Positions 6,407-64,000 of a stretch of DNA of 64,000 bases are shown one piece after another. The stretch's first letter is position 1. Every line of letters begins with the position of its first letter. Source of the stretch: Balanoglossus misakiensis (taxonomy: Eukaryota; Animalia; Hemichordata); the NCBI GenBank assembly GCA_040954595.2, contig CM082583.2, positions 11,235,656-11,299,655 on the forward strand, given 5' to 3'. Below the pieces are notes generated by a model. The model was given only the letters and a program-made list of their open reading frames with translations. It was not told where the DNA came from and did no database searches. Made by a program: the position numbers and the translations under genes.

Positions 6407-7339
6407 TTAAGTCGAAGAAGACGCAAGACCCAGCATGATTCGGATACCCTTACGAATTTGTTGACTTGTGAAGGCGTAGATGACGGGATTGATGCAGGAG
6501 TTGGAGACAGCCAACAAGACAGTAGCTTCGTAATACCAAGATTGAAAGTCGACGGGTAAGCCGTTGTTGGCAAAGACAAACAGCCACTGGTTTGGCGTCC
6601 AGCAGATGAAGAACGCAGAGGTAACGATGCAGAGCATCTGAATGAGTTTGCGACGAGGATTGCCAACGTTTTGCTCGGCGGGGACGACTTCTACTCTCAC
6701 CTGCTTAAACATCGACACGTAAGCATACACCATGAACAACATTGGCAGCAAATAGGTCAGGAGAAATATTGCGTTGCCAGTAACTTTCATGTACGTGTAA
6801 CTTGGCCACACCATATAGCACCAATCTCCCACCACGGTGTATACAACTGGAGCGAATATGTTAGCGATGACGGCCAGTACCCAGGCCAACATGATGGCGA
6901 CTAGAGCAACGCGTTTTGTGAACTTGGCTTGGTACAGGAACGGATACACGATAGCGCAGTACCTGTCGACTGTGATACCAACCAGCAGGAAAACTGAAGC
7001 AATCACTGTTATCCAGAAAAAGACGTCAGAAAGGACAAACTTGCAATAGAGGGAGCGAACAACCCCAGGTGGGATAGGATACCTTGTGACAACTATCTTG
7101 ACGATGGTGCACAAAGATGCCAACAAGTCGGCAAAGGCTAAGGTGGCGATAAAGCAGTTCGGCGTTGTACGCAGGAACTTGACCAGCGGTATGACGGCAC
7201 AGATGATGGAGTTGCCAATGAGACCCACTATGCCGACTATTATCTGAGTTACGTCGGTGAATGTCAGGAAATTCGGACTGTGGCGGAAATGTACCATGAT
7301 CTGCGTGGAATTTGTAGAATTTCCAAAGTCTGACTCCAT
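6407..7339 (-). CDS. Intronless class A (rhodopsin-like) GPCR, galanin/allatostatin-A/somatostatin receptor-like orphan, 310 aa
   Basis: Seven hydrophobic segments, with GNxxI in TM1, LAFAD in TM2, DRY after TM3, CWTP in TM6 and NPVIY in TM7. N-terminal N-glycosylation sites (NST NST). The ligand cannot be assigned from sequence. Confidence 0.93.
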   Translation of the reverse strand: MESDFGNSTNSTQIMVHFRHSPNFLTFTDVTQIIVGIVGLIGNSIICAVIPLVKFLRTTPNCFIATLAFADLLASLCTIVKIVVTRYPIPPGVVRSLYCKFVLSDVFFWITVIASVFLLVGITVDRYCAIVYPFLYQAKFTKRVALVAIMLAWVLAVIANIFAPVVYTVVGDWCYMVWPSYTYMKVTGNAIFLLTYLLPMLFMVYAYVSMFKQVRVEVVPAEQNVGNPRRKLIQMLCIVTSAFFICWTPNQWLFVFANNGLPVDFQSWYYEATVLLAVSNSCINPVIYAFTSQQIRKGIRIMLGLASSST

Positions 7340-7633
7340 TCTTCAGAAATCTCTAAAAACACAGGTATAGTTATCTTCCAGGAGTCGTCTCACACCTTCT
7401 AAGTGTTTCTCATAAATGCTCATGCATTCTTTAAGCTGAGAGGAGTGGTTCACTGATTTACCTGCAAGGTTCGATATAAAACACCAAGGCTATACACGTC
7501 ATGTGACACCATACATTCAGCATAGCCATTCCGAGTAGAGTCTGTATTTCAATAGCAATCTGACTCATATCAAATGTACTCTCATGGTTTATGTCCGACA
7601 GCAATGATTTCATCTCAGTAAAATAATGCTACA

Positions 7634-16700: not shown

Positions 16701-18225
16701 CTGCAAACGAATAAAATGTGTGCAAAAATACCACTAAAATGGCCGCTGTTTTAAAGTAGTGGTTTTTATGCTACCCAGAGGTTTTCTTTGGTTTCAAAAA
16801 GACTCCTCCTGATAACCTGTTTCCCAATGCGCATATCAACATGTGATAGACTTCAAAACTTACGTAACTAAGCATTCAACTTACCTTTGCCAACAATAAC
16901 AGCCTTCGCTTCACTCACTGTTATCACGGTTACTAGAAGAAGACGGTTAGGAAACTCTATTGTTCGGAAGGTGTGAACGAGGTGTTAGCTAGGAGAGTAC
17001 ATGTCCGAACCGCTATGTGGGGTTGTATTGGGGAACGTGTTAATTTTTGAACCCCTTCATCTGCCCTTTTTCGTCAGAGTACAGCGCCACTTTTTTTTTG
17101 TACGAGTTCCATATAGGCTTATGGAGTGCACGGTCATAGTCTGTTGGGCTTGCGACACTCTACCATTGTTTCTTGGGTGGTTAACTAAAAGTCCGGACTC
17201 AAATAGCGTCGAATTTTGAACCCTCAGAATTCAACCCTGATGGTCGCATTTCTGTTTTTTTTAATATATTTAGATATTTTACACCTTTTTGTATTGCATG
17301 GGCTATTTCGTTTATTCCAATTGGAATATTTCGTTGAGATTGCATACCCATTTCGATACAGTCGTTAACATTATCGATATAGCCTTTGGCGGCCATCTTG
17401 TTTGTTTTGGTTCGCATCGAATCTCTAGGGCACAGTCAAGACAAAGAATGTATGGCTTCATCATGTCCTTGAAAGTTCAAAATTGTCATAAATGTGCTGT
17501 GACTTTATAAATTATCCACTCTCTGTTCTGTTTTCCTCAAATCTGGTGGTATACATACTGTGCGTGCAAGCAATTCCGTAAACATGAGTATGGTTTGCTT
17601 TGGATTGTAGGGGTAATGACGTCATTTTGACCGAGCGGTCAGTTATTCTGTCTGTTTATTCGTATGGCCAGGCTCGTTAGCACCTGATATCTTTCGTTTA
17701 CACTAAGTGTTTACCGAGGCGAGCATCTAACAATGGAGAAAAAATAGTTTCCTAACCGTCTTCTTCTAGTAACCGTGCTGTTATGCAATGAAGAAGGGAC
17801 TTCGACCGCAAGTGGTAGTTCAAGAAAGCGCATTTTATCCCAAGCTTGGCAAATCCAAGCCACGTCCAAATGAAAGCGGGCTCATTTTGCATGAACATTG
17901 CTATCGTGTCGCCACATTTCAGACCACTTGTCTCGCAGATGAAACGAGCAAACTTGTTCGACAGGTGGTCGACGTCTGCGAATGTTAGCGTCTCGTCTCG
18001 GAACAGCAGAAACGGTTTGTTTGTAAACTTCGGGTTATTCCGAATCGATAAGAATACATCCACGATGGTGTGCTCTCTGCGAACTCGGCCTCGGATCCCC
18101 CTGAGAGCTCGAACGCCGAGCGCAATTTCTGGGATGTCTCGGTGGAAGTAGGGATAGCTATATATTGCATAGCATAGCGCGGCCAAAAGCCCGGCTAATA
18201 CAGCGACCACGATCTCTAGTATCAT
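13800..18225 (-). CDS. SLC27A2: Very-long-chain acyl-CoA synthetase / fatty acid transport protein (SLC27 family, SLC27A2/6-like); exon 1 is interrupted by a MITE
   Basis: N-terminal TM segment, AMP-binding motif YIFTSGTTG|LPK split across an intron, EFYGATEG, and FATP signature YFNSGD...[11 protein letters not shown]|[12 protein letters not shown]-terminus KVKL. Exon 1 reads LLHCIT|[11 protein letters not shown] once the 16925-17777 insertion and one TSD copy are removed. Paralogue assignment is approximate. Confidence 0.93.
16925..17777. mobile_element. Non-autonomous DNA transposon (MITE), 853 bp, with perfect 32-bp TIRs and a 7-bp TSD (CTGTTAT)
   Basis: CACGGTTACTAGAAGAAGACGGTTAGGAAACT at 16925-16956 and its exact reverse complement at 17746-17777. 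CTGTTAT is duplicated at 16918-16924 and 17778-17784. No transposase ORF inside. Confidence 0.95.
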
Positions 18226-20538
18226 TATGGCGTTTAACCGCGGGCTAAGTCTGGTCTTGTCAACGGAGAGCGTTGGTTTGCTTTTTTATGGTAGCTCAGC
18301 CAGGTGATACCTGGGCTCTGTAACCTTTAACCCGAGGTACGTTAGTTTGTTGACCCAAAGACAGAAGAAAAAAACAGTAGTGGTAGACCGTAACGATGGT
18401 GACGCGTGTCCCATGAAAGTGTCATCTCTAGTAACCTCTTTGTAAAGACACACAATTAACAAAAATATATTTAAAGGGGGAAAATTTGCATCTATAATAA
18501 CACAAGTGGCAAAGGGGTGGCACTGGCCTATAGAAGGCGTGGCCATATGTTATCTATAACATGTATATTTCGGTCACGGGTATGAGAAAACACTGATAAG
18601 AACTACAGTTGCTGTACACCGCAAACGTGAAATAAACATACATACACCTATAGACATATAGTCTTGGACAAAATACTAGTATGTAGCTGATTTGGACAAA
18701 CAGGCGCAAAGATTACACTGTAATCAGCTTCAAGGGTTAAACCTTAAAGAGTAGGGGAAAATGCAACACACTCTGGGTACTGACTCAGGCTAAAGAAAAA
18801 CAGTTTAATTTCCTTAAAGGTAATCAGATGATGAAGAACTTATCAAACATTACAATTGGCAATCCTTAAGAAAATATGGTTTACCACATAATTTTTTAGC
18901 TACATGTATACAGTAGATAGGTGTTACCAGCACAAGACGCCTGTTTCTTTTTTACACAATGAATAGAATAAAACAATATACACAGGGAACTTTTTTCTTG
19001 TGTCTCCACTAAAACTGACCTACAGATTTTCTTCTTGTTTTGTTTTTGGTGGAAACAAAATGTAAATATTCACAATGCAACCTGCAAAACACATGAATAA
19101 GTGACTATTTGTTTTCAAATTTTCTCTGGGTCTTCCGACAACATATTGCAAAAATACCGTGGGCCCACAGAGACACACATAAATATATAGTGCATGGTTC
19201 CCATATGAAAGACCAGATCACTACATCACCCATACATGTCTCACTTCCTGCAACTAAATTCAAACACATGACTTCAAGTTCTATATCCCTGTCTGGCTGA
19301 GAGGAAACAAAAATCTGAAAAAAGTGCCAAAGTAAATGCAAACCAGGTGCCAGGAGATTTTTGTTTTCTTAAACATCATCATTATAAAACTGGACGAGAT
19401 ATACATTCCCTAAAGTTTTGTGAAATATCATACATCATTAAATTGAGTATTTACTATAATTACACCACTGTTTCTACTTCTTAAAAGTACTAGTGCCATT
19501 CCAAACACATACTATATTCACTAAAGGGGGAAACAATATACACTGTAAACATTATTTTAGCAGATTATGAAATCATATCTGATTAATTAATAACCCTGTC
19601 ATTCTCTTTTATTCCAGTTTCAGTTTTTTTTTTCTGCAAACAGTGCTAAAATATCCACCAGAAAGTAATATCACTGGTTAGAATTAAAATTTCAACTTAC
19701 AATTAATGGTATCACTGCGCTGCTACAAAACGATGACTTCATCTGTGATTTGGTCAACATTACTAATAAAACACATCAAGACTGTCAAGGGAGTTTTGGG
19801 GAGGTTACTGCTAAATACAATTTATGACATAGGTATTGGTGGGTCCAAGACGTTTACTTCAATAGTTTGGTGTCAGTGTAAAAAGTTTACAAAAATACCC
19901 TGAAAATCTGAAGTACACATTGTGTAACTGTAAGTGAATACAGTAGATACTGTACCAGTGAGATAGGTACCCAAGACATGTCTCCTACATTCTGGATTTC
20001 TTACCATCTCTAGAAGTGGGCGCTGGGTAACATGACTTTGACAATATTAACCATTTTTTAAATAAACTCTCCCCTTCATTTCATTGACCAAAGTAGCAAA
20101 TCCAAGATATTGGCAGTCTCAATGCAGAAGCTCAATTATGTGTATTACAAATCTACTTATTTGAAGTCCACCCTACAGTGTAACGCAAAGGGTATTATCT
20201 TTGGAAAGCGATAGTCAGAAACATATTGAGGCATTGCACTATTAAGATATACATTTATCATACAAAGAAGATTTACAGTAACAATGATGACCACTAGAAA
20301 CCCCACTCCTTTTTCCTCTTTGACTTGATCACCCCAGCTTTTTTTGTATTTCAAATATGTGACAAATAATTTAATCCCAAAATTTGATTTACACTATGAA
20401 ACAAATTTGTTAAAATATGCTATCTCAGGCAAAAGCTTTTCCTTCCCCCATGCCGTGGAGTGGTCAAATATTATAAAATATTCTAAAAAAAAAATTCCGA
20501 GTAGGTATGTTCAGTCTTGTGCAAGTCTAGTAAATGGC

Positions 20539-28920: not shown

Positions 28921-30970
<2,050 letters not shown>

Positions 30971-32193: not shown

Positions 32194-34225
<2,032 letters not shown>

Positions 34226-41460: not shown

Positions 41461-44521
<3,061 letters not shown>

Positions 44522-55200: not shown

Positions 55201-56002
55201 AGAATACTGGGAAAATCTCGCGTTTTCAAACAATAATAATCGTACGATTCTGGAATGTTTTGTACCCATTTTGGTGTCTCCTATAGCAGAACGGTCATTG
55301 TGTGTTTGGGCGTCTCGCGAAACTGTATAATATTAAAATACATGCGTGTAGGCCTAGGCCCTACATGTATAGATTTCCTTGTTAGTGTTCAGACTTAACG
55401 CAAAGAACATCCGTATTTACCGTGAGTTGAGTAATGTCAAGTTATCTGTTCAAATCCATTGTTAACATTCTACCAATTACAGTGGTGATGGTTTTCATAT
55501 TGCATAAATATTACACGATCGTTTCCTTCCCTGGCGTGGAAATAAGCACATGTTTTTAAGTTACCAGCAGCTTTGTATTAAGTGTGAAGAGCTAAATCTG
55601 TAACAGACCGCATACAAACAGTGGTGTAGCATTTCCCGAGTAACGGGTCACGTCGACATTATTCCAAAACGACGCGTGTCATATTACGCTACCGTGGCGT
55701 GTTTTTGTATCCAGCATTAAAAATATTTGACTGCTTGTCCATATTCCCGTTGCCTCCAGAGGAAAGGTACCTCGTGTGTTGCCCGGGAACACCTTAAACG
55801 GTTGAAGCACGGTCTCTAAAGGCGTCATTGACCGCGAACTTGTCTATAATTATCCCTCTTGTCTTCCCTCTCCAGGAAAGTGACTTGACTCCAACTCGCA
55901 AAAGATGAAAACAATTTGAAGCCGTGATGTTGTAATCAGGTGCAGAGGTTACGTGCTTGCTTATTCGGATAAGTTCTTCACCAAGTGGTCCTTCGCAACA
56001 AC

Positions 56003-59000
56003 ATGGCGACACGACTCAGAAAGATCATCGTGGCCCTTCTCGTCTGTTCGGTGGTGAATTTCATCATCATGGTGAATGTCATCCTGAGAAGCGGCCAGAT
56101 TGGAAATTTGTCGCAACAGGGTCAGTTTATCTACAAGCGGACAACCAGGAGTGCGCAGGCCATGCAGACTACCACCGCGACTCCCACCTACGAGCAGGCG
56201 TGGCATTTGGCGAAGAATCTGACAGCGATTCTTCGGGAAAACCCGAACTTCTTCGCCATAGAACCAGAATTGGCTTGCAGCAGCATTGCTGGAGAAACAC
56301 AGACATTGCTGATCGTCGTCGCGTCCAAGCCGGAAAGCGTTGAAGCCAGGACCACCATCAGGGAAACTTGGGCCAAAGATGTCGGGAAAGACGGTGGCTT
56401 GGTCTTGTTCCTGCTTGGCAGGAGCAGAAACCCCGATGCGCAGGAGGCGGTCGTGAAGGAAAACGCACAGAATCGTGACCTCCTTCAGGTCGACCTCAGG
56501 GACAAAGCGTCAAGTTCAACGCAGAAGCTTGTGTCGTTGATGTACTGGGTGCGCCACAACTGCGCCGGTGCCATGTATGTCCTCAAAGTCGACGAGAAGA
56601 CGCTTGTTCTCCCTGGCAACTTGGCAGAGTTCCTTGAAGTCGCTCCAAAGACCGGTTTTGCGGGCGGTAGGCCTCTTCTAGACACTCATCCCGTGCGAAA
56701 CAAACAAAGCGTCTGGTATATCCCCGAATCCGTGTGGCCCGATTCCAGGTACCCTCCGTACTTAGAAGGATCCGCGTTTTTGCTATCCATGGACGTAATA
56801 TTGCGGGCGTCGGATTCATTTCAGAAACTTGTTTTCTTTCCATTCGAAGACGTTTATCTCGGCGTCATTCTGGAAGCGCTGGAATTAAACCTAACGCCCG
56901 TGAACAATTTCGACATCCATGGAACTTACAGAAGGATATGCCAAGTAAAGTCGTTGCTTTTGTCGACCAAATTCGAGCCGAGGCAAATGAGGAGATATTG
57001 GAAATCACTGAAGGCAGATCTTGAGACAAAGTGTGACACTCGGGACCCGTATTTGGAAAAACTTCAAGTCCAGCAGAACAACGGTGAACTGAAAGGCAGA
57101 ATTTTCAACGATTTCTCCTATCAATTCATCGTCAACCCGAGAAGCCGATGTGTTCCGGATTTTCCCGATGAAGAAGACATACGAGATGTTTTTCTTCTGA
57201 TAATAACGCCGTCTCGTCCGCAGAACTTGAAACAGAGAGATGTGATCCGAAATACGCGCGGAACAAGAAAGTTCATGCTTGGACAAAAAATAGTTCAACT
57301 ATTTCTCATCGGGAAGACGTTTAATAAGAAAACAGATGCCGCAGTTGCCGAAGAGAGTCTGAAACACGACGATGTTGTGATCGTTGACATGCACGACAAT
57401 TACAACAACATGACTCTGAAAACCGCAATGATGTTCAAGTGGGCCTCCGTTAACTGTCCAAATGCGAAGTACGTCATGAAATCAGACGATGACGTCTTCG
57501 TTCATTTGCATAATCTCGTCATCACCCTGGTAGATCAGTCCAGGTCTCGACTCGTTCTCGCTTACGTGCACAGAAAGACCTGGCCATTGAGGGACAGAAA
57601 GTATAAGTGGTATGTCAGCGAAGAAGAATGGCCTCTCGAGGAACCCTACCCTCCCTACCCAAATGGTCCAGCCTACGTCATGTCGTATGACGTAGCCACT
57701 GACGTGTACATGTCATCGTATACGACAGAATTATTTCGGTTTGAAGATGTTTACGTTGGAATAAATCTGCAGAAATTAGGCATTTATTCTACTCATAATA
57801 AGGGCTTTGACAGCTTTGGCAAACGCAGGACCATCTGTGAGCTGAAAGAATCACTAGCATCTCACTACGTCCCCGAGGATCTGATGTACAAATTTTGGCG
57901 ACAAACTGAGGAATGGGGCGAATTTGTACCGTGTAAGCAAGATGACGTCACACCCACGTACCGGAACATTAACGGAATTATTATCGATAACGGAAAAGCG
58001 ATTGGCCTGAAAAACATCACAAGTTCAGAGAAATCGAATAATTTACTCATAAACCACAAAGAAAAATGTTCTGAACGCACGAACCATCCGTATTTGCTAA
58101 TATGTGTTTTCAGTCAGCTGGCCAACACAAAATTGCGGGCAGCGATACGTGAGACGTGGGGTATGCACAATCAAGAAGTTCTCGGTGTTAGGGTAGAAAC
58201 CTTATTTTTTGTAGGCGTGGACATCAACAATGTCGAAACCCAAGTGGCCATAAAGAATGAGGATGAAATATATGGCGACATTATCCAAAGTAATTTCATC
58301 GAATCTTACGAGCACGAGGTCCTGAAAACGTTGACTATGTTACACTGGACATCTCGGTTTTGCGCAGGCGCGGGTTTTCTTGTCAAAGTGGACGATGACG
58401 CCTTCTTAAACGTCAGAAATATGATTGGATTTCTTAAAGCTTGGCCGACAGACGAGTTATATTTGGGGAATGTCAGGTTAAACGCCGCTGCAGACAGAAG
58501 CGAGACTTCAAAATGGTACACGCCTGTTGAAGTCTGGGATCGAACGACATACCCGCCATACGTAGGCAATGCCTACGTGCTTTCCTTGAGTGTGGTTCAG
58601 ATGGCCGTAAGAGCCACTTTTGAGATGCCAGTTTTCAAATGGGAAGATGTTTATATCGGAATACTTCTTGAGAAGCTGGGAGTTCATCCGTATCCACACA
58701 TACACTTCGATCTGACTGGCGCCTATCGTTCCAATTGCGCGTTGCAGTCTTCCATGGTTTCTAGTCATTTCTCGGCAGAAATGACCAGAAAATATTGGAA
58801 AATCTTGCAAAGTGGTGCAACTGACGGCGACGACTGTCAAATCTCGTCCCTGGGCAAACTTAAGCCTAACTTCGGAGACGGAGAAGTGGTTTTAAGTTCG
58901 GAACAGTGTTCGACGGACGATGCCGACGCGAATTCCCCGTTCCTCGTTATGTTGGTCTTTACACCACCCGATCAACTCGAAAACAGAAACGCGGCTCGTC

Positions 59001-62000
59001 TGACGTGGGCTCGCAGAAACACCGTTCTCGGAAAGCATGTAGAAGTCAGGTTTGTCGTAGGCAAGTCGAGCGACAAGGGAATACGAACGATTATTGAAAA
59101 CGAGGCTAAAATCCACCCCGACATCATCATCTCAGAGGCGACTGAAAGCGTTGACAATTCTACTTTAAAACAAATATCCGCGCTACACTGGGTTCATTCT
59201 ATATGCCCATTCACAAAATTCGTCATGATCGTCCCTCCGGAAAGTTTCGTCAACATCGATAACGTTGTCACCTATTTACTTCACGCCCCGCAAACCCATC
59301 ACATGACGTGTCACCTGAAGCGAAATACTAAGCCAATCAGAAGCGTGGACAGTCAATGGTATGTTTCCAAGGATGACTGGCCGCTCGACTATTTCCCTCC
59401 GCACTGCAATGACAAAACCGCCTCAATAATGTCAATGGACGTCGTGAAAGAAATCCTGTATCACTCTCACAACCAGAAGCTAGTCAAGTTCCCCGATGTA
59501 CACATCGGCATGATCTTACAGACGCATCTCAAAAATGTCAGACTCTCCCACAACACGGCATTTGACATCAAAGGAACGGCACACCGTCTGCAAGATGGCG
59601 GAGCTGACGACATCTGTGGCTTGGACAGCGTCATGGTAACCAACGATTTCACCGGCCAGCTCATGCAGTATGTCGTTAAACAGATTTTAGAAGGCAACTT
59701 CGCAAAGTGTTCGGCGCAGCGACGAAAGGAAATTTCCGACACCAACTCGGAGATGAAGAGTAACCGAGAGAAATCTAGAAATATTCAGTATGAATTGATG
59801 GCGAAATTTGCCAACGAAACAGCGGTCAATAAACATGACATTCCCCTGATTATTGACCACCCTGAGAGGTGCCGACGTCATCGAAAGGGTGTCTTCCTGT
59901 TGATCATTGTGAGGACAGAACCTGGCCACAAATCCTATCGGAACGCCATCAGAGCCACGTGGTCCAAAGAGAGTAGCGTCGAGGGAGTGGTCGTTGAGCA
60001 CATCTTTCTTGTCGGGCGGCCAAAAGATCCAAAACTGCAGGAAGAAATCTGGACCGAAGACGAAATGAATGAAGATATCGTGCAAGGGGACTTTGTCGAC
60101 GTGTTCGCCAACCAGACCGTCAAAACGTTGATGGCTCTGCAGTGGGCATCGCAGCGTTGTCCGGACGTCAAATACGCCATGATAACCCAGTCGATTACCT
60201 TCGTTCACGTGTCAAACCTGATTCTCTATTTGAAAACCTCGTTTGCTCAAGAAAATGACCTGGTCGTGGGGCACATCCTTAAAGACTCAAAACCGGTGAG
60301 AAACGCGAAGAGCATGTTCTACGTTCCCGTTGAGGTTTACCCAGAAGAGACGTATCCTCCATACCCCGAGGGCAGGGGATACCTTATGTCTGGGGATGTT
60401 GTGCATAAGACCTACGTCACATCACAGTACACCGCCTTATTTCCATGGGAAGATGTGTACGTCGGCATGCTGCTCCGGAAACTGTCGATAACTCCGCGGG
60501 CGCACTCGGACTTCATCAGCGAATCGTTAAAAGAAGTCCCGGACGTCTGCTACATGAGAAATGCCTTCACCTGGAACGTGGTCGGGCCGGAGGCGATAGG
60601 CGCATCGTACCAAAAATTACAACACAGTCAAAACATCTCATGTTTCGAAGAAGACCAGATCAAACCGGACCTGTATGATTTCAAGGTAACAAGTGAACAG
60701 GTGTGCAAAAGACAGTCAGGCAACGTGAATTTGTTGATTGCTGTGGTCACGTCGCCGTACAATTTTGGTCGTCGACGAGCAATCCGCGAGACGTGGGGCA
60801 TGCACTACGAAAACCTGACAGATTTCGACGTGACAACCGTTTTCATGCTCGGAATGACACGTGATGCAGAAACGAGCTTTATGCTCCAAGAAGAGAGCGC
60901 CTACTACCGCGACATCGTTCAAATCAACTTCGTTGACAGTTATCGAAATTTGACGCTGAAAACAGTTATGCTGTTGAAATGGGTGGCGACCTATTGTCCC
61001 AATACCAATTTTGTCATGAAAGTCGATGATGATGTGTTCGTGAACATAAGGAACGTGGCGACCGCACTCCGCGAAGCGCCAACTACAGGATACTCATGGG
61101 GTCGCACTTTCTTCTATCAATGGCCAGTGCGAGATCCGAAACATAAAAATTACACCCCTCGCGACTTGTGGCCGGACAGGTTCTTCCCGCCGTACAACTC
61201 TGGACCTTGCTATGTGATGTCCGCTGACGTTGTCAAAGATGCATATAAAGCTTCATTCGGCGCCAAGCGATTTCTCAATGAAGACGTCTTCATGGGGATT
61301 CTTCAGCAAAATGTCGGCGTTAATCCGCAGCGGGATGTTCGCTTCGATATCGGTGGAGACGCTCGGGATTTGTGCGCTCTACGCCAAATCATAGCAACTC
61401 ACAAAGTGATGGCGAGAGACATGTACAAGTTCTGGTACTGGTTAGATGCTCACAAGGACGTTAATTGCACCGAGGATAATTTGCCGGATAGACACTTTGG
61501 TCTTTATTACCAAAATCAGACGAGTTGGCAAGAGAAAAAATATGCATTTCATATGGCCAATCAACAGTTTTGCTCTAAATCTCTCACTTCGCTTGTCGGT
61601 AAAGCGAAAAAGTCTATTTTGGTCATGGTTAGCAGTCAGACCGGCAACTTTGAAGCAAGGGCTGCGATTAGAGATACGTGGGGCCGTTTCCACGACAGCG
61701 ATAACGCCATAATGTCTACGCTCTTCTTCGTCGGAGAAACCGCCAACCACACAGAACAGGTCCTCCTCCGGAAAGAGTCCAGTTTCCATGGCGATATCGT
61801 TCAAACAAATGTTCCTGGTTACCACCACTATGCCACTTTCAAAACAATCGCCTCGTTTCTGTGGTTAGACGACTACTGCGGTGACTTCGACTTTGTCATC
61901 AAGACTGACGACGGCACTTTCTTAAACTCGCAGATGTTTTTGCGCTACTTCAAGACGAAGGCGCCGCCAACGAGTAACTTCGTGGCGGGGAGCGTTATCG

Positions 62001-62365
62001 CGGCTTCCAGACCAGTCCGTGACGCCCGCAGTCCGTATTACACGCCAGAGGAAGTCTGGCCGCGGGAACAGTTTCCACTCTACGTGGAAACACCAACGTA
62101 CATTCTTTCGATGGATGTGGCGAAAAGGCTGAACTCGGTGGCCAGGACAACGCAGCCCACAATCTGGGAAGATGTTTTCGTTGGACTGTTGCTTCAGAAA
62201 CTCAACATATGGAAGCCGGTGGCAGTCACTGGACTCGATTTCAAAGGCACGAAACGCGTCACCTGTGAATACAGCTCATCGCTCGCAACGGCGTTTTTCA
62301 CTCCAAATCAAATGCGCACTTTCTGGCAGGAATTTAACGCGGATACCGTCTGCTCCGATCTATAA
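56003..62365 (+). CDS. Type II membrane protein with seven tandem GT31 (beta-1,3-galactosyl/GlcNAc-transferase, Galactosyl_T) domains; 2,120 aa in a single coding exon
   Basis: ATG at 56003, TM anchor IIVALLVCSVVNFIIMVNVIL, then seven repeats of the motif series R.aIReTW / F..G / E...D / K.DDD.F / YPPY..G.aY..S / EDVy.G. Candidate upstream non-coding exon donor GG|GTAAGT at ~55195. Confidence 0.93.
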   Translation: MATRLRKIIVALLVCSVVNFIIMVNVILRSGQIGNLSQQGQFIYKRTTRSAQAMQTTTATPTYEQAWHLAKNLTAILRENPNFFAIEPELACSSIAGETQTLLIVVASKPESVEARTTIRETWAKDVGKDGGLVLFLLGRSRNPDAQEAVVKENAQNRDLLQVDLRDKASSSTQKLVSLMYWVRHNCAGAMYVLKVDEKTLVLPGNLAEFLEVAPKTGFAGGRPLLDTHPVRNKQSVWYIPESVWPDSRYPPYLEGSAFLLSMDVILRASDSFQKLVFFPFEDVYLGVILEALELNLTPVNNFDIHGTYRRICQVKSLLLSTKFEPRQMRRYWKSLKADLETKCDTRDPYLEKLQVQQNNGELKGRIFNDFSYQFIVNPRSRCVPDFPDEEDIRDVFLLIITPSRPQNLKQRDVIRNTRGTRKFMLGQKIVQLFLIGKTFNKKTDAAVAEESLKHDDVVIVDMHDNYNNMTLKTAMMFKWASVNCPNAKYVMKSDDDVFVHLHNLVITLVDQSRSRLVLAYVHRKTWPLRDRKYKWYVSEEEWPLEEPYPPYPNGPAYVMSYDVATDVYMSSYTTELFRFEDVYVGINLQKLGIYSTHNKGFDSFGKRRTICELKESLASHYVPEDLMYKFWRQTEEWGEFVPCKQDDVTPTYRNINGIIIDNGKAIGLKNITSSEKSNNLLINHKEKCSERTNHPYLLICVFSQLANTKLRAAIRETWGMHNQEVLGVRVETLFFVGVDINNVETQVAIKNEDEIYGDIIQSNFIESYEHEVLKTLTMLHWTSRFCAGAGFLVKVDDDAFLNVRNMIGFLKAWPTDELYLGNVRLNAAADRSETSKWYTPVEVWDRTTYPPYVGNAYVLSLSVVQMAVRATFEMPVFKWEDVYIGILLEKLGVHPYPHIHFDLTGAYRSNCALQSSMVSSHFSAEMTRKYWKILQSGATDGDDCQISSLGKLKPNFGDGEVVLSSEQCSTDDADANSPFLVMLVFTPPDQLENRNAARLTWARRNTVLGKHVEVRFVVGKSSDKGIRTIIENEAKIHPDIIISEATESVDNSTLKQISALHWVHSICPFTKFVMIVPPESFVNIDNVVTYLLHAPQTHHMTCHLKRNTKPIRSVDSQWYVSKDDWPLDYFPPHCNDKTASIMSMDVVKEILYHSHNQKLVKFPDVHIGMILQTHLKNVRLSHNTAFDIKGTAHRLQDGGADDICGLDSVMVTNDFTGQLMQYVVKQILEGNFAKCSAQRRKEISDTNSEMKSNREKSRNIQYELMAKFANETAVNKHDIPLIIDHPERCRRHRKGVFLLIIVRTEPGHKSYRNAIRATWSKESSVEGVVVEHIFLVGRPKDPKLQEEIWTEDEMNEDIVQGDFVDVFANQTVKTLMALQWASQRCPDVKYAMITQSITFVHVSNLILYLKTSFAQENDLVVGHILKDSKPVRNAKSMFYVPVEVYPEETYPPYPEGRGYLMSGDVVHKTYVTSQYTALFPWEDVYVGMLLRKLSITPRAHSDFISESLKEVPDVCYMRNAFTWNVVGPEAIGASYQKLQHSQNISCFEEDQIKPDLYDFKVTSEQVCKRQSGNVNLLIAVVTSPYNFGRRRAIRETWGMHYENLTDFDVTTVFMLGMTRDAETSFMLQEESAYYRDIVQINFVDSYRNLTLKTVMLLKWVATYCPNTNFVMKVDDDVFVNIRNVATALREAPTTGYSWGRTFFYQWPVRDPKHKNYTPRDLWPDRFFPPYNSGPCYVMSADVVKDAYKASFGAKRFLNEDVFMGILQQNVGVNPQRDVRFDIGGDARDLCALRQIIATHKVMARDMYKFWYWLDAHKDVNCTEDNLPDRHFGLYYQNQTSWQEKKYAFHMANQQFCSKSLTSLVGKAKKSILVMVSSQTGNFEARAAIRDTWGRFHDSDNAIMSTLFFVGETANHTEQVLLRKESSFHGDIVQTNVPGYHHYATFKTIASFLWLDDYCGDFDFVIKTDDGTFLNSQMFLRYFKTKAPPTSNFVAGSVIAASRPVRDARSPYYTPEEVWPREQFPLYVETPTYILSMDVAKRLNSVARTTQPTIWEDVFVGLLLQKLNIWKPVAVTGLDFKGTKRVTCEYSSSLATAFFTPNQMRTFWQEFNADTVCSDL

Positions 62366-63081
62366 AATCTGGTGAATGCCATGCAAAGTCAGTTAACTTT
62401 GTTTTATTAATTCGTATTTTGCCCATAGGTAAAGTCCAAATCATGGTGTTGGCTATAAAGATTCAACAAAAATAAATTACCAGTTTTTTTCCCACAAGGA
62501 AATAAAAAATATCACGCACTTAGTATTCCGAAAGGGGGACATATCCGCTCCATGTTTCAACAGACAAAGTAGTATAGTTCACGTGTAAACGGATTATCGT
62601 TATGTTTTATGGAGTGATACTTTCAAATTCAAGTGTGCTAAGACTACCTTTGTCAATCTACGAATGTGCAATTTTAATAAATAAATCTTCACAATTTTAA
62701 CATTGAGTTCATTCCCTGACGAACACGTACCCCTGACATGAAACTTTTCATCAGCGGTAGCTCCCGTTGATGCAGTTGCAGTAATTCTGAAGCTTGTTAG
62801 GGCCTAAACCCAAAGCGACAACCACCATATTGCTTTTTTGAGGCCAAAAATGATGACGTCACTCATCATTTGAGTTACAATCGTTCTCATATTTGAATAC
62901 ATCATCTCCATATCTACAACATAACTTCTCAGGGTGAGTTCTTTTTAGAGAATTTAATATTTGTTTGGGGAAAACATGATTGACCATGGTTGGGAGAGTA
63001 GTGCAGTGGAAGTGTGCTCGAACGACCCTTGACCTGCTTTGACCTCTGGAGTTCATAAATAACAAACAACTGCACTTCAAT

Positions 63082-63972
63082 ATGGCTTCTCAGACAACAA
63101 ATCGACTTCTGCAGGTAACGTTATTTTTATTCTGTGTGACGTAGAGTTCTTTTAAGAATTTGTCGTCGATAAATACAGTTACCACTTGCACTTTTGGCTG
63201 TGGCTCTTACGATAGCATGAACGACCTATTCTATTGGCATTTTTCGAACGGCATAAAATTTGAAACGATCATCTGATCATGGACGTCCATGATCTGATGA
63301 ACCGTTGGCTATCGTTCCTTGAGTTCAATTTATGTGTGTTAATGTTCCCTTTTCAGGTAGCAAGGCAACATGTTCCTTTGATCAAATTCCGTGGAGGTAA
63401 AAGGCCCCCACAGTATACAGGTAATGGAATGATACTGTTTTGTTTAAACTGCTCACATAAATATATCTGCATTTGACAAACAGGGCTGATGAATTTTCTC
63501 TAACTAGCTGGGGGAACATTCCAAGCACTGTCTGGTTTGTTGAATATTTCTGGATACCATGAACAGTATTCCTTGTTTTAACTTGACCAAGCTTACTTCT
63601 TGTTTTGCACAGTATAAAGATGTTGATAGAGTATTTTCTTCCCGCCAGCCCCTCAAAGGATAACAGTGCCACAGCAAATCAGGGTACCTGCACAGGCAAC
63701 CTCGTTTGTTGTCAAAGGAACAAGTATGCGGGGTAGTGGTATAGATCACAGACAGTTACCAGATAAATACAGACAGAAACCTTTGACAGCTGAAGACATT
63801 GAAGCTATTGAGGTATGATATAAAACATTTTACCTGGTTTATGTTCTCCAAATAGACAGCCTTTTGTATATTTGTTTGCTTGTCTTATTCCTTGCACAAG
63901 TAGTGCTAATACATCCTTAATTAACTCATACCTCACGCTTTTCTTTTACAGATGGGAGGAAATATGCCATAA
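63082..63972 (+). CDS. MRPS36: Alpha-ketoglutarate dehydrogenase component 4 (KGD4/MRPS36)
   Basis: Exons 63082-63114, 63357-63420, ~63650-63812 and 63952-63972 give MASQTTNRLLQ|VARQHVPLIKF...LPDKYRQKPLTAEDIEAIE|MGGNMP*. This matches the family's HxPLIKF and LPxxYRxxPxxxEEIExIxxGG motifs. Confidence 0.88.
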
Positions 63973-64000
63973 TGCGGAGACCAGCAACACCATCACCTAC

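Follow-up and report, generated by a model that had tools for sequence, protein, structure and literature searches.

The human β-1,3-glycosyltransferases B3GalT5 (PDB 8zwp; PMC11969544) and B3GNT2 (PDB 6wmm, 7jhk; PMC7948508), both of family GT31, each carry a single catalytic domain. B3GNT2 binds its metal through H376 and through D247, the final residue of the DxD motif; D333 is the catalytic base, and K149 touches the donor N-acetylglucosamine (PMC7948508). The B3GalT5 counterparts are D158, H285, and D243 (PMC11969544). Nine human glycosyltransferases (GTs) have two GT-A domains, and among them B3GLCT alone is described as having both from GT31: one dead and one live, derived from internal duplication, with the dead N-terminal domain required for acceptor binding (PMC13597200). 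Elsewhere, inactive GT domains stabilize or fold active ones, as in CHSY-CHPF, EXT1-EXT2 (PMC13389171), and C1GALT1-Cosmc (PMC7185993, PMC8022947); dead GT31 domains of CHPF stabilize CHSY, and dead domains are also present in EXT1/EXT2 (PMC13389171). Norcoclaurine synthase fusions carry two to five catalytic-domain repeats in one open reading frame (ORF), and activity rises in proportion to their number (PMC5171800). A GT31 survey recognizes only X/GalT and Fringe/X architectures, without repeated Galactosyl_T (PMC8022947). Here we describe an array of seven GT31 domains in one chain (P0001, 2120 amino acids), encoded in a 64,000-nucleotide stretch of the acorn worm Balanoglossus misakiensis (assembly GCA_040954595.2, contig CM082583.2, positions 11,235,656 to 11,299,655, forward strand; hereafter the window).

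P0001 shares its fold, motifs, and type II anchor with B3GalT5, B3GNT2, and the CAZy GT31 BGR branch, but has seven domains (D1 to D7), five of them non-canonical, and its canonical domains D2 and D6 lack the K149 of B3GNT2. B3GLCT also joins dead and live GT31 domains in one chain, which qualifies the premise, made in an initial annotation of this DNA, that GT31 enzymes have one catalytic domain each. However, B3GLCT belongs to the Fringe branch (PF02434), resides in the endoplasmic reticulum, and has two domains, the dead one truncated and without a working xED (catalytic base) motif (PMC13597200), whereas P0001 has seven full-length PF01762-type domains, two of them canonical, and no PF02434 pair. 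CHSY-CHPF and EXT1-EXT2 likewise have two live sites among several dead ones, but in these, as in C1GALT1-Cosmc, dead and live partners sit on separate chains. CHSY combines live domains from two families, GT31 and GT7; P0001, with PF01762 and Fringe matches only, lacks the arrangement of GT31, cystatin-like linker, and GT7 found in CHSY/CHPF. Unlike the norcoclaurine synthase repeats, those of P0001 are mostly disabled and 24-35% identical in pairwise comparison. The dead-plus-live principle is already known; the novelty lies in its scale here, in slots that stay fixed, and in the way D2 and D3 switch.

An old single-chain array

The ORF starts in good context and runs for 6363 bases without a stop or an N, an open length with a chance probability of ~1e-56 (Table 1). 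Residues 8-28 form the sole hydrophobic stretch, with no internal anchor, and hydropathy predicts the type II anchor and stem of the BGR branch. Pfam places PF01762 in all seven domains (111-162 bits each, curated cut-off 23), separated by linkers of 20-53 amino acids, and no other domain type apart from a weak Fringe overlap on D3. The ORF scan, hydropathy, and Pfam matches thereby confirmed the single-anchor, seven-domain ORF proposed in the initial annotation, at the coordinates given there. Because a pyrimidine-rich 3' splice-site-like sequence ends at ~55875, some 127 bases upstream of the ATG, and the stop is followed by AATAAA signals, the entire coding part looks like a single exon. 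The longest DNA self-match spans 91 base pairs at 69% and the domains are only 24-35% identical, so P0001 is not a collapsed repeat. No further GT31 match was found in the window upstream of 55000.

The orthologue search that the annotation had suggested revealed the same layout in Ptychodera flava and Saccoglossus. A word-indexed search at E 1e-20 gave six matches: three from P. flava (2123-2159 amino acids), two from Saccoglossus, and an unrelated multidomain protein at 9% coverage. P0001 was 69/62/44% identical to the P. flava proteins P0002/P0003/P0004. When 1.84 billion representatives were searched with a profile, without an index (best 150 of 4556 matches at E 1e-30), three seven-domain proteins ranked at the top and four-domain proteins next. 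Among these best 150 matches, the P0001-type chain was the longest GT31 array; none exceeded seven domains, and no search aimed at forms >3710 amino acids was made. A metagenome scan for relatives' DNA confirmed 0 of 70 pattern matches.

The seven-domain arrays fall into two types. Type A comprises P0001, P0002-P0004, and Saccoglossus P0221; the P0221 model, missing D5 and half of D6, was counted as six of seven domains. Type B comprises the complete Saccoglossus P0220/P0005 and fragments from P. flava (P0008) and Glandiceps (P0055). Collinear, uncharacterized RefSeq models are seven-slot in P. flava (XP_070542326.1, XP_070541732.1, XP_070547541.1) and seven-slot (XP_006822772) or six of seven domains (XP_002742263.1) in Saccoglossus kowalevskii. 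A family of four-domain enteropneust proteins (n = 7: P0049, P0050, P0052, P0053, P0054, P0006, and P0215, from P. flava, Glandiceps, and Saccoglossus) has a D1 and a D3 that match those of the seven-domain arrays, and the point where these proteins end coincides with the D4-D5 linker of P0001. Strigamia P0051 and Diadema P0009, apparent fused gene models with overlapping or near-identical repeats, were excluded from all counts.

A quick tree built from 98 rows grouped the domains by position across species (Shimodaira-Hasegawa-like approximate likelihood ratio support: D3, 14 rows, 98; D5, 7 rows, 99; D6, 7 rows, 96; D1, 13 rows, 92). This grouping places the origin of the arrays before the Harrimaniid-Ptychoderid split, dated to 373 million years ago (PMC4729200). 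Neither the quick trees nor those made with FastTree separated the deep relations among the seven positions. D2 grouped with the single-domain, B3GALT-type Saccoglossus P0010 (support 98). A single clade of all 22 array domains without P0010, a group chosen once earlier trees had been seen, was rejected (p 0.003, approximately unbiased test).

The architecture is real and old, and apparently undescribed. No publication on four- or seven-domain GT31 arrays was found in the literature searched, which largely excludes subscription journals. The GT31 survey has 18 Saccoglossus rows for nine sequences, and no GalT array is among them; its table, which gives XM numbers, does not contain the three array accessions that were looked up as protein identifiers (PMC8022947).

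Two observations concern incomplete relatives. P0107 and P0060 of Glandiceps talaboti have adjacent accessions, lie on a contig of equal length, and encode, respectively, an anchor with a live D2 and two dead domains with the start of D5; they are perhaps one split array without D1. The P. flava fragment P0069 contains the last part of D5 together with D6 and D7; a C-terminal hydrophobic stretch comes next, which sets it apart from the other arrays.

Catalytic states and constraint across the slots

We called a domain canonical when it combined the D-x-D motif, the base Asp (xED), and a C-terminal His nine residues past the conserved Cys of the last strand (Cys+9), the spacing seen in B3GalT5, B3GNT2, D2, and D6. 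The DxD site reads DEK/DDD/DDD/PPE/QSI/DDD/DDG from D1 to D7, and xED is EDV in every domain except D4 (PDV), both as initially annotated. The C-terminal His position reads T/H/S/N/N/H/A. Judged by these residues, the full catalytic set is in D2 and D6 only, D3 is doubtful, and D1, D4, D5, and D7 are without a metal site. Both D2 and D6 also retain the uracil-pocket Asp and Lys, as does D5, which keeps the base as well. With their catalytic base retained, D5 and D7 could be active.

The annotation had read three apparently active domains, with both metal-binding elements kept in D2, D3, and D6. This holds for D2 and D6, but the His of its D3 reading (SHF) is one residue out of register: Ser921 occupies Cys+9, and His922 follows at a variable position. 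Among D3-position domains, 12/16 have His at +9 without gaps, three have Ser (P0001, P0002, P0003), and one, whose assignment to this slot is uncertain, has Thr; P0002 and P0003 read Ser-Gln, with Gln at +10, and share with P0001 a G-loop shortened by one residue. Pairwise HMMER aligned His922 with H285 of B3GalT5, but this pairing requires a displaced Cys and a gap in the alignment. Since the gap-free comparison with D3 orthologues outweighs this gapped pairing, we regard the His of D3 as lost.

Across all arrays, canonical domains were found in 0/13 D1, 6/14 D2, 11/16 D3, 0/15 D4, 0/7 D5, 7/7 D6, and 0/7 D7 (0/42 for D1, D4, D5, and D7 together), the rows being paralogues from four species and thus not independent. 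Four slots are always non-canonical, one is always canonical, and two (D2 and D3) switch between lineages. The order initially proposed, dead-live-live-dead-dead-live-dead, occurs in P0004 and, at its six positions, in P0221. It is not fixed, as the state of D2 and D3 varies and D3 of P0001 lacks the His, but it is likely the ancestral order of type A paralogues. Type B arrays read dead-dead-live-dead-dead-live-dead, and the four-domain proteins read dead-dead-live-dead, one with DDE in D3.

Constraint was measured as amino-acid identity per domain. Identity to P0002 was 85% in D2, 80% in D6, 75% in D5, 70% in D7, 64% in D3, 63% in D1, and 60% in D4, compared with 57% (154/272) in stem and linkers, which are not a neutral baseline. 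D3 lay significantly below D2 (p 7e-8) and D6 (p 1e-4), evolving like D1 and D4. Identity to the more distant P0004 was 60% in D2, 58% in D6, 48% in D3 and D5, 44% in D7, 36% in D1, and 35% in D4, all above stem and linkers (26%, 69/267; D5 p 1e-7, D7 p 1.5e-5, D1 and D4 p ~0.02). These identities clearly point to selection on D5 and D7.

Other tandem GT31 proteins and the surrounding window

Tandems of GT31 domains have multiple origins. In echinoderms, a protein composed of anchor, dead domain, and live domain is kept (P0203, P0068, P0072, P0063, P0074, and P0014, from Holothuria, Patiria, Lytechinus, Antedon, Anneissia, and Amphiura); in Logan, 12 members of the Holothuria cluster lie on contigs of 2.5-3.0 kb. 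Because its live domain groups beside the B3GNTs, this pair seems to have a separate origin from the enteropneust arrays. Other, independent tandems comprise three similar domains in P0059 (Mya arenaria), three domains in P0056, two canonical domains in P0064 (Mytilus), and five domains in P0070 (the dinoflagellate Polykrikos). In Mya, the 12 near-identical members of the cluster are spread over three chromosome-sized contigs and have Ser at the C-terminal His site.

Elsewhere in the window, Pfam identified a rhodopsin-family G-protein-coupled receptor ORF and exons of an AMP-binding enzyme and an alkaline phosphatase, and two tandem tubulin ORFs are of equal length with near-equal Pfam scores (Table 1). 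A small spliced gene starts ~700 bases past the stop of the seven-domain ORF; its exon near 63357-63419, which may resemble MRPS36/KGD4, had no Pfam match.

Table 1. Coordinates of the seven-domain ORF, its parts, and other features (window positions)
Feature	Position	Strand	Remarks
5' untranslated part of coding exon	55876..56002	+	sequence scan; splicing inferred
Seven-domain GT31 ORF (P0001), type II membrane protein	56003..62365	+	uninterrupted; start ATG at 56003
Predicted type II signal anchor	56024..56086	+	residues 8-28; hydropathy
D1	56276..57034	+	C92-C344; DEK, EDV, Thr at C-terminal His site; pseudo-domain, weakly constrained
D2	57149..57934	+	C383-C644; DDD 495-497, EDV, His621; canonical, best conserved
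D3	58067..58837	+	C689-C945; DDD 797-799, EDV, Ser921 at C-terminal His site, G-loop deletion; doubtful, likely decaying
D4	58907..59710	+	C969-C1236; PPE, PDV, Asn at C-terminal His site; most degenerate pseudo-domain
D4-D5 linker	59711..59869	+	long helix predicted at low confidence (predicted local distance difference test <50 across much)
D5	59870..60643	+	C1290-C1547; QSI, EDV, Asn at C-terminal His site; no metal site, strongly conserved
D6	60704..61468	+	C1568-C1822; DDD 1675-1677, EDV, His1800; canonical
D7	61571..62353	+	C1857-C2117; DDG, EDV, Ala at C-terminal His site; non-canonical but conserved
Three AATAAA polyadenylation-like signals	62471..62681	+	at 62471, 62501, 62676; sequence scan
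Rhodopsin-family receptor ORF	6407-7342	-	Pfam
AMP-binding enzyme exon	17752-18285	-	Pfam
Tubulin ORF	28921-30087	-	Pfam
Tubulin ORF	32194-33360	-	Pfam
Alkaline phosphatase exon	42892-43386	-	Pfam
Small spliced gene	63081-64000	+	

Possible roles of the array

We consider it somewhat probable that P0001 is a two-site Golgi β-1,3-glycosyltransferase, working through D2 and D6, with built-in helper pseudo-domains. A Golgi location would follow from the predicted type II anchor and from what is known of the family. In this proposal, D2 and D6 would transfer β-1,3-linked galactose (Gal) or N-acetylgalactosamine (GalNAc), and D1, D4, D5, D7, and probably D3 would be folded helpers packed on the working domains and holding the acceptor. 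Their likeness to the dead domains of B3GLCT and CHPF, together with retained xED and acceptor-loop residues, suggests such a role. The history may have begun with multiplication of a B3GALT-like domain in the enteropneust stem, yielding a four-domain and a seven-domain unit; duplication of these units would have produced paralogues that each retained one to three canonical sites, and D3 would later have lost its His in the P0001 lineage, leaving two.

The donor of D2 and D6 is likely Gal or GalNAc, since both lack Lys at the K149 site and D2 groups with P0010, which the GT31 survey assigns in its supplement to B3GALT1/2/5/8/B3GALNT1 (PMC8022947). The site holds Pro in D2, Val in D6, and Lys in fish and tunicate B3GNT rows, although echinoderm B3GNT-like rows also lack the Lys, so that the marker is not strict; trees place D2 and D6 outside the B3GNT group. 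Mucin and sialic-acid genes, tied to mucus feeding, are expanded in hemichordates (PMC4729200). As a guess from this setting, which has no link to the P0001 gene itself, the product could be mucin-type glycans of the mucus feeding apparatus.

AlphaFold2 modelled all seven domains as full GT-A folds. The best structural match of the D1-D4 model was B3GalT5 (8zwp; Foldseek template modelling score 0.93 to target), followed by B3GNT2, and D2 superimposed on 8zwp with Z 35.7 and a root-mean-square deviation of 1.6 Å over 263 residues. The fold search covered D1-D4; in D5-D7, the order of secondary structure elements was the same. On the pairing of domains, for which the annotation had proposed AlphaFold models, one of the two models gave a hint. 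D1-D4 (15-row alignment) reached a mean predicted local distance difference test (pLDDT) of 83.4 and a predicted template modelling score (pTM) of 0.67, which hints that about three of the four domains are packed together, given that, by rough expectation, four unlinked domains would reach 0.30-0.43, two rigid pairs 0.48-0.57, and three packed domains 0.67-0.72. A complex prediction of D6 with D5 scored 0.00, with the alignment unused and the controls unfolded, and was counted neither way. The idea of three fixed dead-plus-live pairs (D1-D2, D3-D4, D5-D6) was abandoned in view of the non-canonical D3 and the dead D2 of other arrays.

Several observations weigh against two working sites served by helpers. 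The D4-D7 model (10-row alignment, pLDDT 76.9) reached a pTM of 0.39, the level of unlinked domains; the expected values are themselves crude, and no inter-domain contacts were visible in either model. The slot counts share ancestry, as stated above. Identities of D1, D3, and D4 to P0002 were indistinguishable from stem and linkers (p 0.16/0.09/0.38), so that a specific role for these three domains is unsupported. The xED base is kept in 7/7 D5, 16/16 D3, and 5/7 D7 domains, and D5 and D3 are possibly not dead; the first residue of the D5 DxD site is Lys or Arg in 5/7, and its C-terminal His site is occupied by Arg or Lys in 3/7. Sequence alone cannot call D3, D5, and D7 dead, because GT-A enzymes can be active in the absence of DxD or the C-terminal His: GT14 and bacterial GT6 enzymes lacking DxD use basic residues, and GT13, GT6, and GT64 substitute water for the His (PMC7185993).

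These residues, and a D5 almost as conserved as D6 (against P0002), would fit an assembly line in which D5, D7, D3, and perhaps D1 are catalytic through basic side chains or water, so that one chain would attach different sugars one after another or build a repeat polymer. We rate this as unlikely: D5 of P0001 itself reads QSI with Asn and has a basic residue at neither site, the D5 replacements differ among orthologues (QSI, QSN, KSN, RVT, RSD, KAY) rather than pointing to one new mechanism, and the base is lost from D1 in P0003 and from D7 in Saccoglossus type B. A metal-independent GT31 enzyme is, moreover, not described in the literature consulted. Similarly doubtful is its most elaborate form, a single-chain Golgi line where D2, D6, and at least one re-wired domain (D5, D7, or D3), active without the usual metal ligands, would add different β-1,3 sugars in order, the other domains would act as lectin-like clamps, and paralogues would switch D2 or D3 to re-program the product.

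The array might instead have arisen as a tandem of active copies raising dosage, now mostly decayed and kept folded and in frame without a role. Tandem catalytic repeats do arise independently, as in Mya (three), Mytilus (two), Polykrikos (five), and norcoclaurine synthase (PMC5171800); the live member of D2/D3 differs between paralogues, the identity of D1, D3, and D4 to P0002 is at linker level, and a free single-domain relative of D2 exists (P0010). However, a single stop codon could remove the terminal D7, or the D4 that ends the four-domain proteins, yet both are kept in both acorn-worm families; D5 and D7 lie well above linker identity, and echinoderms (sea cucumber, starfish, urchin, crinoid, brittle star) separately keep a dead-plus-live pair. 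On balance, we think this improbable. The gene models of some relatives are fragmented (P0008, P0107 with P0060, P0221) and one furin-like RCRR lies at residue 1289, but a mis-assembly, read-through, pseudogene, or polyprotein cut into single enzymes is highly implausible given the single open frame, the lack of an internal anchor and of recent DNA repeats, full-length collinear proteins in assemblies of two other species, and the overlap of RCRR with a conserved Cys, reading RCTR in P0004.

Two working sites with built-in helpers are our preferred account. The published classification has no place for a repeated Galactosyl_T architecture, a gap that these proteins expose. If D5 or D7 were active, they would be metal-independent GT31 enzymes. 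Acorn worms have kept four- and seven-domain GT31 chains for >370 million years, and the family offers a natural series on the role of inactive GT domains, the question posed by Cosmc, CHPF, and EXT: each slot lends itself to comparison of live and dead versions among paralogues, within one chain and one exon.

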